Shown here: in pieces, positions 3,007 to 39,778 of the stretch | How positions within the stretch are numbered: position 1 is the stretch's first letter | Layout of the letters: each line of letters opens with the position of its first letter | DNA from: Desulfobacterales bacterium | GTDB lineage: Bacteria; Desulfobacterota; Desulfobacteria; Desulfobacterales; UBA11574 | Reading direction: 5' to 3' | Assembly: GCA_032126435.1 (NCBI GenBank) | Contig: JAQBBE010000147.1 | Location: 1-43,895 of the forward strand | Length of the DNA: 43,895 nt | Translations under genes and position numbers: made by a program | Notes under the pieces: generated by a model | What the model saw: the letters and a program-made list of their open reading frames with translations, nothing else | What the model was told of the DNA's origin: nothing | The model's database searches: none

Positions 3007-3738
3007 ATGAAATTTAAAATCTGTGCTGCCTTTTTTCTACTGTTCTGCATGGTTTTTTCCCAAACCAGCGCTTTTGGCGTCTCAAAACAAACACCTCAAT
3101 CACCATCCGCCGTTATACCGGAAAGCCGTTTCACCTTTGCTCCGGTTACAGACGGCGTTGAAATAACACATGATTTTGTCATGCAAAACAAAGGAACCGC
3201 TGAGCTGAAGATTGAGAGCGTCAAAACCGGCTGAGGGTGTACCGCTGTCTCATACCCGAGACAGATCCCTGCCGGCGGCGAGGGAAAGATTGTCATTAAA
3301 GTCGATACATCGGGATACGGTGGAAGAACGCTCACCAAAACAATAACGGTCAAAACCAATACACCCGACCAACCCGTACTTCACCTGACCATTTCTGGTA
3401 ATGTTGAAAATTTTGTTACCATCGTCCCGAAGCGGGTCACTCTGCGCGGTTTTCCCGGCGATAAAATAACATCAACCGTAAAGATCATACCTGAAAAAAA
3501 GTATCCGTTCAAAATTTCAGACGTCACAGCTATTAATGGAAAATACATCCGTTATACGCTGGAAAAAAATAAATCCTCAGAAAAAATGGAATATGTTCTT
3601 ACGGTTGAAAACCTGAAAAATGATACGGGCCGCTTTTTCGATACCATCAAATTAACAACCGACAGCAAAATACGGCCGGAGATTAAAATCAATGTCTACG
3701 GTTATATCTCAGACCGGTCGGCAAACCCAAAAAAATAA
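3007..3738 (+). CDS. Secreted DUF1573-family protein with an in-frame TGA (candidate selenocysteine) at the first Cys of the CGCT motif
   Basis: Signal peptide MKFKICAAFFLLFCMVFSQTSAFG. The listed ORF stops at TGA 3232-3234, but the same frame stays open for 167 more codons to TAA 3736-3738. Read-through gives FTFAPVTDG..ITHDFVMQNKGTAELKIESVKTG-U-GCTAVSYPRQIPAGGEGKIVIKVD, which is the DUF1573 pattern (..SCGCT..) with TGA in place of the first Cys. Hairpins follow the TGA. Confidence 0.6.
3245..3285 (+). promoter_or_regulatory. Candidate SECIS region: two adjacent hairpins just 3' of the in-frame TGA
   Basis: Hairpin A is CTGTCTC(3245-3251)/GAGACAG(3258-3264) with loop ATACCC. Hairpin B spans 3266-3285 (TCCCTGCC..GGC(G)AGGGA) with a bulged G and apical loop GGC. 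The apical loops sit about 20 and 42 nt after the TGA. Neither is a textbook bacterial SECIS. Confidence 0.35.
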
Positions 3739-3739
3739 G

Positions 3740-4384
3740 ATGAAAAATATCAAAGTCGTTGCTTTCGATTGTGACGGCGTCATGTTCGACACAACAAAGG
3801 CAAACATTGCTTACTATAATCAGATATTGGACCATTTCGACCGGCCGACATTGACCCCCGATCAATTTGCTTACTGTCACAGCCATACTGCAGACCAGTC
3901 CATTGCATTCCTCTTTAATGACCCGGACGATATCCGGGCGGCCCAGAGTTATCGTAAAAATATGAGCTATCTCCCTTTTTTAAAATATATGACCATGGAA
4001 CCCAATTTAAAACAGCTACTTAAAACGCTCCGGCCAACATATAAAACCGCAGTTGCAACCAATCGATCGGACACCATGGACCGGGTTCTCAGCGAGCACG
4101 GCCTGGAAGGGTATTTTGACCTTGTGGTCAGTTCCATGGACGTGGAGCGTCCCAAACCTCACCCGGATCCGCTGATCAAGATTCTGGAATATTTTGGAAT
4201 AGAACCGAACAATGCGTTATATGTTGGGGATTCGAACCTCGACGAAATTGCGGCAAAAGCGGCAGGCGTGCCGTTTGTGGCGTATCAAAACAGATCCCTT
4301 TCCGCTGAGTTTCATATACACAGTTTGAAAGAAATCGCAAAGATCCTTGATTTAGAAATAGGGTGGCAGGAAGACGTCACATAA
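3740..4384 (+). CDS. HAD-superfamily hydrolase (phosphatase, PGP-like)
   Basis: DxDG motif at the N-terminus (MKNIKVVAFDCDGVMFDT), plus ATNR and GDSNLD motifs. ATG 3740 is preferred over ATG 3692, which overlaps the upstream gene. Confidence 0.85.
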   Translation: MKNIKVVAFDCDGVMFDTTKANIAYYNQILDHFDRPTLTPDQFAYCHSHTADQSIAFLFNDPDDIRAAQSYRKNMSYLPFLKYMTMEPNLKQLLKTLRPTYKTAVATNRSDTMDRVLSEHGLEGYFDLVVSSMDVERPKPHPDPLIKILEYFGIEPNNALYVGDSNLDEIAAKAAGVPFVAYQNRSLSAEFHIHSLKEIAKILDLEIGWQEDVT

Positions 4385-8628: not shown

Positions 8629-9036
8629 ATGACACCGACCTTTGAAAAGAATTTAAAATACAATATTGAAAGTCCGGACATTGTAAAGACCGACGTTTTG
8701 ACCCCCATCGAATATCAATATCGATCCCGAAGAGACGTTGATATCGTCATCCGACAACCGGAATATACATCGGTATGTCCCATGACCGGCTTGCCCGACA
8801 TAGGGTGCATAACCATTAAGTACCGGCCGGACGAGAAAATCGTTGAATTGAAATCCTTGAAATTTTATCTGTTGCAGTACCGGAATGTCGGTATTTTTTA
8901 TGAGCATGTGGTCAACCGGATTCTCGATGATCTTGTTGCCGTTCTGGCACCCAAATTTATGGAGGTTACCGGGGATTTTACAGCCAGAGGCGGAATCACG
9001 GCCAGAGTTACGGCGGTGTTCGAAGGGAATAAATAA
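8629..9036 (+). CDS. queF: NADPH-dependent 7-cyano-7-deazaguanine (preQ0) reductase, type I QueF
   Basis: 135 aa with YTSVCPMTGLPDIG (catalytic Cys) and ELKSLKFYLLQYRN (QueF motif). Confidence 0.93.
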   Translation: MTPTFEKNLKYNIESPDIVKTDVLTPIEYQYRSRRDVDIVIRQPEYTSVCPMTGLPDIGCITIKYRPDEKIVELKSLKFYLLQYRNVGIFYEHVVNRILDDLVAVLAPKFMEVTGDFTARGGITARVTAVFEGNK

Positions 9037-9995
9037 TGTCCAAAACAACCAAAACGCATATTGTAAATCGGTATCAAGTTGCTGCTATTTTATTTTTATC
9101 CCTAATTTTATCATTGACTACGGGGTGCTCAACGTATTCGTCCATGGAGAGAAAAGCCAAGCGAATGGTCAGAAATCTTCGGGCTCCAGACAGTGATTTG
9201 AAAAAAAGGGTTGGCATTACGCTTTTTGAAAACAAAACCGCTTTTGCTGATATGGAGATGCAACAACGCTTTTTAATCGATCTGACGGAAAAGATAATGT
9301 CTTCATGCCCGGACGTCCTTTTGGAAAAACCGGGCGATTCCGGCTACCCCGATTTCTTGATAAAGTTACCCAGGAAGGCATCCGGCCAGATCGACAACTA
9401 TGATCTGGCCGAGTCCGGCAGACGGTCCGGTTTGAATTCAATTGTAACCGGAGCGTTAAATGATGTCAGAGTCGATAAAAGGAAAGAGGGGATCTGGTGG
9501 TTTAAAGACATTCATCACTATGTCCAAGTGCAGATTGTGGCTGAAGTATACGATACCGAGACCGGCGCAAAGCTTCTCGACGAAAGTTTTATGCGCGAAA
9601 TCGAAATCGATGAATCAGACCTGGAATCCACGGGTGCAGACGCTGAAATTAAGGCGTATATAAAAGATGATATTTTAAAGCACATTGCCGTTGATATGGG
9701 CGAAAAAATCTGCAATGCCGTGGTGTTTGATCCCTGGACAGGTTACATTACTTCGACCGTTGAGGATAAGATCATCCTCTCCTCTGCAGAACGGGTGGGA
9801 ATAAAGCCCGGGGACATATTTGAAGTATATAACAGTACCGATACCTTCCAGGGAGTAGAAGGTCACCGATTCTTTATACCCGGTCTTAAGACCGGAGAGA
9901 TAAAAATAACTGCCGTCTATCCAGACACTGCTGAAGCTATTCGTATTTCAGGCCAAGACATTCGGGCAGGCTTTACGGTTCGACCAAAAGATTAA
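9036..9995 (+). CDS. Lipoprotein, unknown function
   Basis: Lipobox LSLTTGC after a hydrophobic h-region. The start overlaps the queF stop (TAATG). No catalytic motif recognised. Confidence 0.75.
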   Translation: MSKTTKTHIVNRYQVAAILFLSLILSLTTGCSTYSSMERKAKRMVRNLRAPDSDLKKRVGITLFENKTAFADMEMQQRFLIDLTEKIMSSCPDVLLEKPGDSGYPDFLIKLPRKASGQIDNYDLAESGRRSGLNSIVTGALNDVRVDKRKEGIWWFKDIHHYVQVQIVAEVYDTETGAKLLDESFMREIEIDESDLESTGADAEIKAYIKDDILKHIAVDMGEKICNAVVFDPWTGYITSTVEDKIILSSAERVGIKPGDIFEVYNSTDTFQGVEGHRFFIPGLKTGEIKITAVYPDTAEAIRISGQDIRAGFTVRPKD

Positions 9996-20996: not shown

Positions 20997-22724
20997 ATGA
21001 AAATATTAATTGCAAAGAACGCTGGTTTCTGCATGGGAGTCCGCAGAGCCGTTGAAATGGTTCTGGATACCCCGAACAAACACGAAAATCCTATCTGCAC
21101 TTTTGGGCCTCTTATACACAATCCCCAGGTTCTAAATCTTTTGGAAGAAAAAGGGATATCCATTCTCGATGAAGTACCGGATCACGGATCCGGTACAGTT
21201 CTGATTAGAGCCCATGGCGTTCCACCCGACACCAAAAAAAATCTGAAAAAAGCCGGTTTCAAGGTTATCGACGCCACATGCCCCCGCGTTATAAAGGTAC
21301 AAACCATCATCCGGAAACATGCACGACAAGGTTGTGCCGCGATCATTATTGGAGACAAAGCACACCCTGAAGTCATCGGTCTTCTGGGGTATGCAGGGGA
21401 TAAAGGGTATGTTGTCGACAATATCGATGATCTTGATTCTCTTCCTTCGTTTAAAAGCGCCATCATCGTTGCCCAGACCACACAGAACACCCTCTTTTTT
21501 GAAAAGGTAAAAACCTGGGCAAACCAAAATTTTCCGCACTACAAGATCTATGATACCATTTGCGATTCCACGGCCAAGCGCCAGGCTGAAGTCCATCACC
21601 TGGCAGATTCTGTGGATGCCGTTATTGTTGTGGGGGGATATAACAGCGGAAATACAAAGCGGCTTGCCGAAATTGCCCGAAAGACCGGCAAGCCGACGTA
21701 CCACATCCAAGAGGAATCGGAAATCGATATGGGTGCACTTTCTGAAGCAAGCTGTATTGGGATTGCAGCCGGCGCTTCCACCCCGAACTGGATCATCAAT
21801 AAAATCTACAGAAAGCTCGAAGCCCTCCCTTATAAAAAGAAGCAGCGCTGGAAAAGGAGCGTGTTTGCTGCCCAGCGAGCCCTTCTTCTCACAAATATCT
21901 ATGTGTCCATGGGCGCCGGATGCCTTTGCTATGCCTGTATCAAGATTCAGGAGATTTCAAACTACTTGCCGTTTGTATTGATATCCGTGCTTTATGTTCA
22001 ATCCATGCATATCTTCAACAACCTGATCGGTACAAAGGCAGACCGATACAATGACCCTGACAGGTCTTTTTTTTATCACGAAAACAAGATCCCCCTTGCC
22101 CTTCTCGCCGTTACAGCTGGGGGCGTTGGGCTGATCATCGCCTATTCAACAGGAAAGATACCCTTTCTGATCCTTCTCGGCATGAGCATCATGGGACTTT
22201 CTTACAATCTGAGACTGATACCGGCAAATTTCGCAGGCAGCAAGTACCGGCGGATAAGGGATGTCCCGGGATCAAAAACTGTTCTGATTGCAATGGCATG
22301 GGGAATCGTGACATCTGTATTGCCCTCCCTGTCCGTACCCGAGAATATTCGTCTGAGTACGGTCATCATACTCCTGTGGTCTCTAAGCCTGGTCTTTGTC
22401 AGGACGGCATTTTTTGACGTTCTTGATATGCAGGGCGATCGCATTGTGGGAAAAGAGACGATACCCATACTTCTGGGAGAAAAGCGAACCTTGCGCCTTT
22501 TAAAAATGATACTGGCCATAAATTTTGGCATTTTGATTTTGTCCAGCGTCTTACATCTTATCTCGAGTCTCGGATTTGCCCTTGCGATCTGCCCCGCTTT
22601 TATCTTCATCGTTCTTTCAGCCCACGAACGCGGTTATATGCTCCCCGGGATCCGGCTGGAGTTTTTGGTTGAAAGTAACTTTGTTATGGCGGGCTTGATC
22701 GCCCTTTTTGGGTCTTTTCTTTAG
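20997..22724 (+). CDS. ispH: 4-hydroxy-3-methylbut-2-enyl diphosphate reductase (IspH) fused to a C-terminal UbiA-type polytopic prenyltransferase-like domain
   Basis: N-terminal ~285 aa are IspH, with three cluster Cys contexts (GFCMGV, ATCPRV, TICDST). The C-terminal ~290 aa have about 8 hydrophobic segments and Asp-rich motifs NNLIGTKADRYNDPD and FFDVLDMQGDRIVGKETIP (UbiA-like DxxDxxxD..G..T). One uninterrupted ORF. Confidence 0.85.
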   Translation: MKILIAKNAGFCMGVRRAVEMVLDTPNKHENPICTFGPLIHNPQVLNLLEEKGISILDEVPDHGSGTVLIRAHGVPPDTKKNLKKAGFKVIDATCPRVIKVQTIIRKHARQGCAAIIIGDKAHPEVIGLLGYAGDKGYVVDNIDDLDSLPSFKSAIIVAQTTQNTLFFEKVKTWANQNFPHYKIYDTICDSTAKRQAEVHHLADSVDAVIVVGGYNSGNTKRLAEIARKTGKPTYHIQEESEIDMGALSEASCIGIAAGASTPNWIINKIYRKLEALPYKKKQRWKRSVFAAQRALLLTNIYVSMGAGCLCYACIKIQEISNYLPFVLISVLYVQSMHIFNNLIGTKADRYNDPDRSFFYHENKIPLALLAVTAGGVGLIIAYSTGKIPFLILLGMSIMGLSYNLRLIPANFAGSKYRRIRDVPGSKTVLIAMAWGIVTSVLPSLSVPENIRLSTVIILLWSLSLVFVRTAFFDVLDMQGDRIVGKETIPILLGEKRTLRLLKMILAINFGILILSSVLHLISSLGFALAICPAFIFIVLSAHERGYMLPGIRLEFLVESNFVMAGLIALFGSFL

Positions 22725-38474: not shown

Positions 38475-38515
38475 CACCCTAATTGATCGTAAAAAGACTC
38501 GGAAAGGTTTTTAAT

Positions 38516-39778
38516 ATGTCGTCAGCAAAGGGTATGATTGTCCTCATGGGCTCCGGTGAACTCACCGCCACAATGGTGGAGGTGCACAAAAAAATACTCG
38601 CCCGGCTGCCGGACCCTCCCAATGCGATTTTTTTAGACACCCCCGCCGGGTTTCAGCTGAATGTCGAAGAGATTTCCAGGAAAGCCGTGGAATATTTTCG
38701 GGTTCACGTTCAAAAACCCCTCGCCGTCGCCTCGTATCAATCCGCTGAGAATACCACGGCATTTGAAGCCGAAACAGCGTATGATCTGCTGCGAAACGCA
38801 CATTTTGTGATAGTGGGACCGGGCAGCCCCACCTATGCGGTTCGTCAGCTTCAGAAAACACCGATCCCCGAAATTCTCAATACCGTCATTCAATCCGGCG
38901 GCTGCCTGGTGGCTGCAAGCGCAGCCGCCCTGACCATGGGCCGCCATACCCTGCCCGTTTACGAAATATACAAGGTCGGCCAGGAAATCCACTGGATCGA
39001 CGGACTCGATATTTTAGCACCATTCGGTTTCAACCTGGTTGTCGTTCCCCATTGGAATAACGCCGAAGGCGGAACCCACGACACACGGTTCTGTTTTATG
39101 GGAGAACCCCGTTTTCGGAAACTCGAGGCACTTTTGCCGGAAGACACAACGATTTTGGGTATCGACGAGCATACCGCCTGCATCATCGATCTTCACGCGC
39201 AACGAATCGACATCCAAGGAATCGGAGACGTCACCCTCCGAAAAATGGGGCGTGAAATAAAATTCAGCAAAGGAGACCCGCTGCCGTTTGAAGCACTGGC
39301 TGAGGAAATGGACCTCGGAGAATGGACCTCCAAAGAACCTGATGGAATCGACGGCGCCGTCGACCTGAAGGCCCCGGAAAAAAACGTGTTGAGTCGAGCG
39401 AGTGTCATCGAAGCTTCTCTTCGCAAAGGGCTGGCGCACCAGGATCAAAAAGCCGCCACCAATGCCCTTTTGGCGTTGGACAGCACCATCTGGAAAGCGC
39501 AAAGGGATTTGGAGGATGCCGAAAGCATTTCTCAAGCGCGTGAAATCCTGAGAGAATCGATTGTTCTTTTGGGGGCGGAATTGGGTCCTTCACCCCACCG
39601 CCTTCGAGAATCCCTGGCGCCATTGGTGGAACGAATGCTTCAATTGAGGGTGGAGTTTAGAAAAAAACAACAATGGTCGGACGCTGACAGCATCCGGGAT
39701 ATCCTTTTGCAAGCCAACATCCGCGTGGAAGATACCGAAGACGGGTTTCGCTGGCGAATCATCGATGAAAACCTTTAG
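38516..39778 (+). CDS. Uncharacterised two-domain protein: peptidase S51/cyanophycinase-like fold plus CysRS C-terminal-like helical tail
   Basis: N-terminal blocks (IVLMGSGE, FLDTPAG, FVIVGPGSPTYAVRQL, GGCLVAASAAALTMG) follow the order of S51 family blocks (GGxE, ..AS, GGdQ.rl, GTSAGA). The C-terminus (RVEFRKKQQWSDADSIRDILLQANIRVEDTEDGFRWR) resembles the extreme C-terminus of cysteinyl-tRNA synthetases. No HIGH or KMSKS motifs. Confidence 0.7.
   Translation: MSSAKGMIVLMGSGELTATMVEVHKKILARLPDPPNAIFLDTPAGFQLNVEEISRKAVEYFRVHVQKPLAVASYQSAENTTAFEAETAYDLLRNAHFVIVGPGSPTYAVRQLQKTPIPEILNTVIQSGGCLVAASAAALTMGRHTLPVYEIYKVGQEIHWIDGLDILAPFGFNLVVVPHWNNAEGGTHDTRFCFMGEPRFRKLEALLPEDTTILGIDEHTACIIDLHAQRIDIQGIGDVTLRKMGREIKFSKGDPLPFEALAEEMDLGEWTSKEPDGIDGAVDLKAPEKNVLSRASVIEASLRKGLAHQDQKAATNALLALDSTIWKAQRDLEDAESISQAREILRESIVLLGAELGPSPHRLRESLAPLVERMLQLRVEFRKKQQWSDADSIRDILLQANIRVEDTEDGFRWRIIDENL

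Follow-up and report, generated by a model that had tools for sequence, protein, structure and literature searches.

Six new selenoprotein families were described by Zhang and Gladyshev in 2007, and one of them, OS_HP2 ('Olavius symbiont's hypothetical protein 2'), originated from the deltaproteobacterial symbionts (delta1/delta4) of the gutless worm Olavius algarvensis (PMC1976440). The table of the 2008 Global Ocean Sampling study places OS_HP2 under pfam07610 with the motif UxC and counts 2 sequences with Sec and 354 homologs with Cys (PMC2398784). Two reviews, from 2022 and 2026, list a 'DUF1573 domain-containing protein' (PF07610, motif UGC) among the known prokaryotic selenoproteins (PMC9312934, PMC13188914), and the source of the DUF1573/UGC entry in the 2022 review is the OS_HP2 paper of 2007 (PMC9312934, PMC1976440). 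In the established bacterial mechanism of selenocysteine (Sec) insertion, SelB together with Sec-tRNA(Sec) binds a hairpin located 3' of the UGA codon (PMC9312934), and the published consensus of this SECIS element includes a conserved guanosine in the apical loop (PMC1976440, Fig. 5 legend).

The gene described here lies in a window of 43.9 kb (the whole stretch of DNA that was analysed), which represents ordinary chromosomal DNA of a member of the Desulfobacterales with 47% G+C; the lineage label JAAXQD01 appears in one ENA bin. Its reading frame is interrupted by an in-frame TGA. When this TGA is read as Cys, the product matches PF07610 (DUF1573) with 72.7 bits over aa 39-133 (cutoff 26.1), and the NCBIfam model NF041425, 'OS_HP2 family (seleno)protein', with 147.7 bits (curated cutoff 100), whereby aa 37-134 cover positions 1-98 of the 98 positions of the model. 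The position of the putative Sec, first in U-G-C and aligned with the Cys of homologs, agrees with the family motif. The gene is a typical representative of the OS_HP2/DUF1573 'UGC' selenoprotein family, which has been known since 2007.

A preliminary description of this DNA had presented the gene as a candidate new selenoprotein and had not counted DUF1573 among the described bacterial selenoprotein families. The first part of this proposal, a UGA that specifies Sec in place of the first Cys in CGC, is retained below as very probable on the basis of comparative sequence evidence. In view of the NF041425 match and of the OS_HP2 literature from 2007, 2008 and the later reviews, the claim of novelty fails: the family was published as OS_HP2 in 2007, linked to pfam07610 in 2008, and its NCBIfam model is curated. 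What can be added to the published OS_HP2 record is the fixation of the Sec form in the genomes of at least 80 Desulfobacterales species, the conserved priA - OS_HP2 - HAD locus, a second Ig-like domain and a predicted signal peptide.

The frame opens with the ATG at 3007, and the ORF 3007..3234, which encodes 75 aa, is closed by the TGA. Beyond it, the same frame continues through 167 stop-free codons (77-243) up to the TAA at 3736-3738, an event with a probability of approximately (61/64)^167, or roughly 3e-4 by simple arithmetic. All coordinates given earlier for the 75-aa ORF and the 167 open codons were confirmed, and the Sec-spanning peptide of the gene, VKTG-U-GCTAVSYPR, matches the sequence as had been claimed. 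Likewise, the PF07610 score and the predicted signal peptide support the earlier view that the read-through product is a complete exported DUF1573-like protein (the N-termini of all aligned homologs are basic and then hydrophobic), while the placement of the TGA at the first Cys of the CGCT motif agrees with the aligned Cys homologs and the invariant Cys78. The features of the locus are collected in Table 1.

Table 1. Features of the OS_HP2/DUF1573 locus, in window coordinates.
Feature	Position	Strand	Basis and remarks
OS_HP2/DUF1573 selenoprotein gene	3007..3738	+	243 codons including the proposed Sec76, stop TAA; NF041425 and PF07610 matches
UGA codon 76, very probably Sec	3232..3234	+	TGA in the corresponding column of 80/80 genome loci; Cys/W in protein homologs
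Cys78 codon TGT, partner of Sec76 in U-G-C	3238..3240	+	no other residue in alignment A1 or A2
Predicted Sec-type signal peptide, aa 1-22	3007..3072	+	MKFK, hydrophobic core and TSA|FG; no lipobox; probable cleavage site
DUF1573 Ig-like beta-sandwich domain, aa 39-133, bearing U-G-C	3121..3405	+	PF07610, NF041425, AF2 model
Second Ig-like beta-sandwich domain, about aa 136-236	3412..3714	+	boundaries approximate, taken over from the P0027 model
Putative SECIS core, stem GUCUC/GAGAC, 5 bp, 6-nt loop	3247..3262 (3247-3251/3258-3262)	+	covariation; 13 nt after the UGA
Second hairpin UCCCU...AGGGA	3266..3285	+	92% paired; 0 pairs changed on both sides
HAD-superfamily hydrolase gene	3740..4384	+	HAD_2 124 bits; ATG 1 nt past the selenoprotein stop

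The UGA codon very probably encodes Sec in an exported OS_HP2/DUF1573 protein, a reading supported by four lines of evidence: the TGA itself in all 80 loci retrieved, the existence of Cys orthologs, purifying selection on the codons beyond the TGA, and a hairpin that covaries and lies at the spacing of a SECIS. The loci were obtained by scanning one genome per species with the seed peptide GEGKI[TV]IK, which lies downstream of the Sec column, so that retrieval is unbiased toward TGA; a second seed pattern contained W encoded as TGG and was hence unable to match TGA. Both patterns were derived from the closer set of sequences (A2), as the 32-sequence alignment (A1) has no sufficiently conserved stretch. 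The scan retrieved 80 loci, nearly all from Desulfobacterales MAGs, with protein identities of 39-93%, and every one of them combines a TGA at the Sec column with an open frame beyond it, free of frameshifts and further stops. For codons 77-243, dN/dS (Nei-Gojobori, in comparison with 13 orthologs) is 0.08-0.5, and in nearly all 13 comparisons it is lower after the TGA than in the upstream part. In the protein alignment, Cys78 is invariant and conservation extends to the C-terminus.

These data bear directly on the possibility of a fresh pseudogene, in which a recent TGY-to-TGA nonsense mutation would have cut a DUF1573 gene to 75 aa while the downstream frame had not yet decayed. TGC and TGT are indeed one substitution away from TGA, and public gene calls end at 75 aa, but the same-column TGA in 80 of 80 species-level genomes at identities down to 39%, the low dN/dS after the TGA and the lack of frameshifts or extra stops in any ortholog make such an origin very improbable. 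Nor do redundant copies of one damaged gene account for the pattern, since the 80 loci are distinct sequences (73 distinct rows in the alignment used below). An error of sequencing or assembly that produced the TGA is the least probable explanation of all: at least 24 independent contigs in NCBI, JGI and ENA assemblies contain the identical locus, with a 75-aa call and fragments behind it, and the TGA is found in 80 other genomes as well. Examples of MAGs with this locus are GCA_032126875.1 and GCA_032124595.1. The preliminary description had preferred Sec over a fresh pseudogene on account of the intact frame and the conserved-Cys position, and the TGA in all 80 loci together with the purifying selection upholds this preference. 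It had also proposed a comparison of orthologs for TGY/TGA pairs at this column and for conservation beyond the TGA; TGA is present in 80/80 loci, Cys in distant as well as in syntenic orthologs, and the downstream conservation is reflected in the dN/dS values.

In the proteins deposited in public databases, the column looks different. Among the best 120 protein matches, it is occupied by W in 24 full-length sequences, by C in 26 and by S in 2, and the remaining 68 have no motif; many of the latter are 134-177 residues long and start just past the Sec column. Both the full-length proteins with W and the group without the motif are the output to be expected from gene callers meeting a TGA. A survey of these mis-calls over the protein matches P0001-P0120 and the loci L081-L084 reveals three kinds of fault: the gene is divided into a 75-aa stub and a 50-aa fragment, a C-terminal piece of 134-177 aa is called from an internal ATG, GTG or TTG, or the protein is given at full length with Trp wrongly placed at the Sec position.

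The Trp calls could in principle point to a reassigned genetic code (4 or 25), with TGA specifying Trp or Gly in the source organism. The W at this column in 24 of the best 120 protein matches would fit such a code, but TGA terminates the genes of LysRS and RF3 in the window, none of the 19 Pfam-verified genes (approximately 9,000 codons) contains an internal TGA, and homologs align Cys rather than Trp or Gly. The W calls occur on short contigs, for which the metagenomic gene caller probably chose an alternative code. Given the use of the standard code in the window, the W in public calls is an artefact, and a reassigned code is about as improbable as a fresh pseudogene. Pseudogene formation, recoding to Trp and sequencing error are therefore excluded for practical purposes.

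Six Cys forms were taken as DNA, three of which keep priA upstream and/or the HAD gene downstream. On account of this shared synteny, these three represent true orthologs in which Cys replaces Sec. Two further homologs, P0035 and one other, carry Ser at the Sec column (G-S-G-C-T); the column is hence not absolutely limited to Sec or Cys, and the Ser homologs could be natural loss-of-redox variants.

A 75-nt segment examined for a stem-loop downstream of the UGA folds with -28.2 kcal/mol (z = -2.4). Two hairpins within about 50 nt had been noted before; both are present (3245-3264 and 3266-3285), but covariation is seen only in the first. In the source sequence, the first hairpin extends to 7 bp, 3245-3264, and its outer pairs 3245/3264 and 3246/3263 are unpaired in approximately 40% of the orthologs. 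The conserved core was examined in a gapless alignment of 73 distinct 87-nt segments around the TGA, in which the stem comprises columns 28-32 paired with columns 39-43. Throughout the 73 rows, pair 29:42 is formed as UA (48), UG (17) or CG (8) and is never unpaired, while for pair 30:41 the counts are 64 CG, 6 UA and 2 UG. One coordinated substitution even changes the protein on both sides of the stem, with Val replaced by Ala in the 5' arm and Arg by Lys in the 3' arm, yielding GCUUC/GAAGC.

All five pairs are kept in 66 of the 73 Sec forms, in contrast to the Cys forms, only six in number, which keep 5, 4, 4, 3, 3 and 1. Furthermore, of the 66 Sec forms with Arg encoded in the 3' arm, 63 (95%) use AGA or AGG for it, against a background of 31% AGR among the 522 Arg codons of the verified genes in the source window. 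The compensatory pairs, the contrast with the Cys forms and the AGR bias are evidence for selection on the stem at the RNA level, beyond coding constraint. The conservation of the core hairpin is partly confounded by the conserved peptide that it encodes, V-S-Y-P-R-Q. The lower stem embracing the UGA is paired in most sequences of the 73-row alignment without any informative compensatory change. As neither this lower stem nor the second hairpin displays compensatory changes, both are inseparable from coding conservation, and the second hairpin may reflect the conservation of the encoded I-P-(A/P)-G-G-E-G.

The 6-nt loop (columns 33-38) contains no conserved G in the 73-row alignment. If the closing pair C32:G39 were open, the loop would include G39, a base with almost no variation that lies 24 nt past the UGA. 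Some accepted selenoprotein genes deviate from the consensus SECIS model, as stated in the 2022 review (PMC9312934). The RNAalifold consensus of the 73 rows did not recover the GUCUC/GAGAC stem. The weak fold that it gave (-6.4 kcal/mol), in which the UGA region pairs with the 5' arm of the hairpin, was rejected, with double-sided changes restricted to the weak pair 21:25. A scan against Rfam, at gathering as well as at permissive thresholds, returned no matching model.

With regard to the machinery of Sec insertion, no selA, selB, selD or tRNA-Sec gene was found within the 43.9-kb window, which contains no tRNAs at all and whose three translational GTPases are an EF-G-like protein, RF3 and BipA. 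A second TGA-interrupted gene is not evident in the window either, as other candidates resemble antisense or non-coding frames. The clade is reported to use Sec and to be rich in selenoproteins (PMC9312934, PMC1976440), and because of this documented richness, together with the conservation evidence, the machinery is presumed to be present in the source organism.

A process independent of SelB would offer a different account of the same data. In this case, the UGA would mostly terminate translation and release a 75-aa secreted peptide, or a near-cognate Trp or Cys tRNA would read through it, and the hairpin would be a by-product of the coding sequence. The shortness of the hairpin and its loop without a conserved G would agree with this account, as would the lack of compensatory change in the lower stem or second hairpin and the fact that the Sec machinery is not seen in the window. 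It is nevertheless improbable, although less so than a pseudogene or a changed code. That 80 species have fixed TGA and not TGY is difficult to account for unless Sec itself confers a benefit, the stem shows compensatory changes and a bias toward AGR (95% vs 31% background) and is relaxed in the six Cys sequences, and the clade is documented as selenoprotein-rich (PMC9312934, PMC1976440).

The preferred reading, namely insertion of Sec via SelB, suggests the following sequence of events. Once a ribosome arrives at the UGA at 3232-3234, the hairpin core 3247-3262 would serve as SECIS and recruit SelB-GTP-Sec-tRNA(Sec), and Sec would be inserted at position 76 in place of termination. The N-terminal signal peptide would carry the protein across the inner membrane, where Sec76-Gly-Cys78, predicted to occupy an exposed turn in the first beta-sandwich, may form a selenenylsulfide or act as a ligand of soft metals or metalloids. 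Such a redox or metal-binding role of U-G-C can be hypothesized for the family as a whole.

The predicted architecture is based on an AlphaFold2 model of a natural Cys ortholog (P0027), obtained with a mean pLDDT of 88.7 and a pTM of 0.72. The model consists of a signal helix followed by two Ig-like beta-sandwiches in tandem; the N-terminal helix (5-22) is of low confidence, and C-G-C is located in the turn between strands 65-72 and 76-81, within a block of somewhat lower confidence. The second Ig-like domain is matched by no Pfam model, and it is conserved and under purifying selection. In a sequence search of the PDB, the only solved relative was 2qsv from P. gingivalis (E=0.003), which is also among the fold matches; together, the sequence and fold searches of the PDB returned generic tandem-Ig/ASH-type domains and 2qsv, and no functional clue.

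The genomic neighbourhood is likewise conserved. In the window, the gene for PriA (194-2707) is followed by the selenoprotein gene, the HAD hydrolase gene, a gene for a CoA-binding protein on the other strand and the gene for DNA polymerase I, and farther along lie genes for LysRS, an EF-G paralog, ParA/ParB, IspH, RF3 and BipA. The HAD gene is directly downstream in 75 of the 80 Sec-form loci, and in Cys-form orthologs (L086, L088, L090) it is also downstream, overlapping the stop; PriA is found upstream in at least 47 of the 80 loci. The HAD hydrolase is a probable operon mate of the selenoprotein gene.

Upstream of the selenoprotein start, at a distance of approximately 110-130 nt, a direct repeat of GATGCAACTT (two copies, 2874-2883 and 2896-2905, 22-nt period) flanks a TTGACA-like hexamer. 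The repeat is kept only in the closest relatives (L002, L005), and locus L010 has another 9-mer repeated at the same spacing; GATGCAACTT may be an operator or promoter element. One of the scanned contigs, L059 (JBLMXM010000372.1), is labelled Hyphomicrobiales and yet carries a priA - OS_HP2(TGA) - HAD arrangement of the Desulfobacterales type, and it has probably been mis-binned. Elsewhere in the window, a single 575-aa ORF (20997-22724, + strand) comprises IspH/LytB (aa 3-275) and a UbiA prenyltransferase (aa 308-541), an apparent fusion of two isoprenoid-related enzyme genes. Two ORFs on the + strand, 9036-9995 (319 aa) and 38483-39778 (431 aa), gave no Pfam match at E<=1e-5. The stops of the 19 verified genes in the window are TAA (13), TAG (4) and TGA (2), with TGA the rarest.

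The scientific weight of this gene is small, as the literature of 2007-2008 already contains the family, its motif and the place of Sec in it, all of which are curated in NCBIfam. The remaining interest lies in the fixed Sec state and the synteny across the Desulfobacterales, in the minimal hairpin without a conserved G, and in the mis-annotation, since the gene is a clear example of a systematic fault in public protein sets. With its predicted export, its Sec form fixed throughout a whole order of sulfate reducers and its gene next to that of a conserved HAD hydrolase, the protein would be a reasonable target for studies of periplasmic selenium/sulfur redox processes. A more far-reaching interpretation, according to which the short G-less hairpin would define a distinct minimal class of SECIS and the priA - OS_HP2(Sec) - HAD arrangement, fixed in at least 80 Desulfobacterales species, would mark a housekeeping-level periplasmic selenol/thiol function, is speculative and rather unlikely.

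In comparison with known systems, the putative SECIS shares with that of the E. coli fdhF type its position as a hairpin directly 3' of the UGA, within the coding region. The spacing of the fdhF SECIS from the UGA is roughly 11 nt, and the start of the stem 13 nt after the UGA in the present gene is close to it. In contrast to the fdhF type, the conserved stem is limited to 5 bp and lacks a bulged U, and neither a G nor a GU is conserved in its loop of 6 nt. The Cys-type DUF1573 proteins (S-C-G-C-T), for example those of Bacteroidota and Planctomycetota, are likewise exported and have an Ig-like beta-sandwich bearing C-G-C, and the P. gingivalis protein of crystal structure 2qsv is a relative of this type; they differ by having Cys in place of Sec, with neither UGA nor SECIS, and often by their domain architecture. 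With the OS_HP2 family itself, the gene shares PF07610, Sec at the first residue of U-G-C and an origin in the clade of sulfate-reducing deltaproteobacteria. No substantive difference separates the two, and the gene at 3007-3738 is one more ortholog of OS_HP2.
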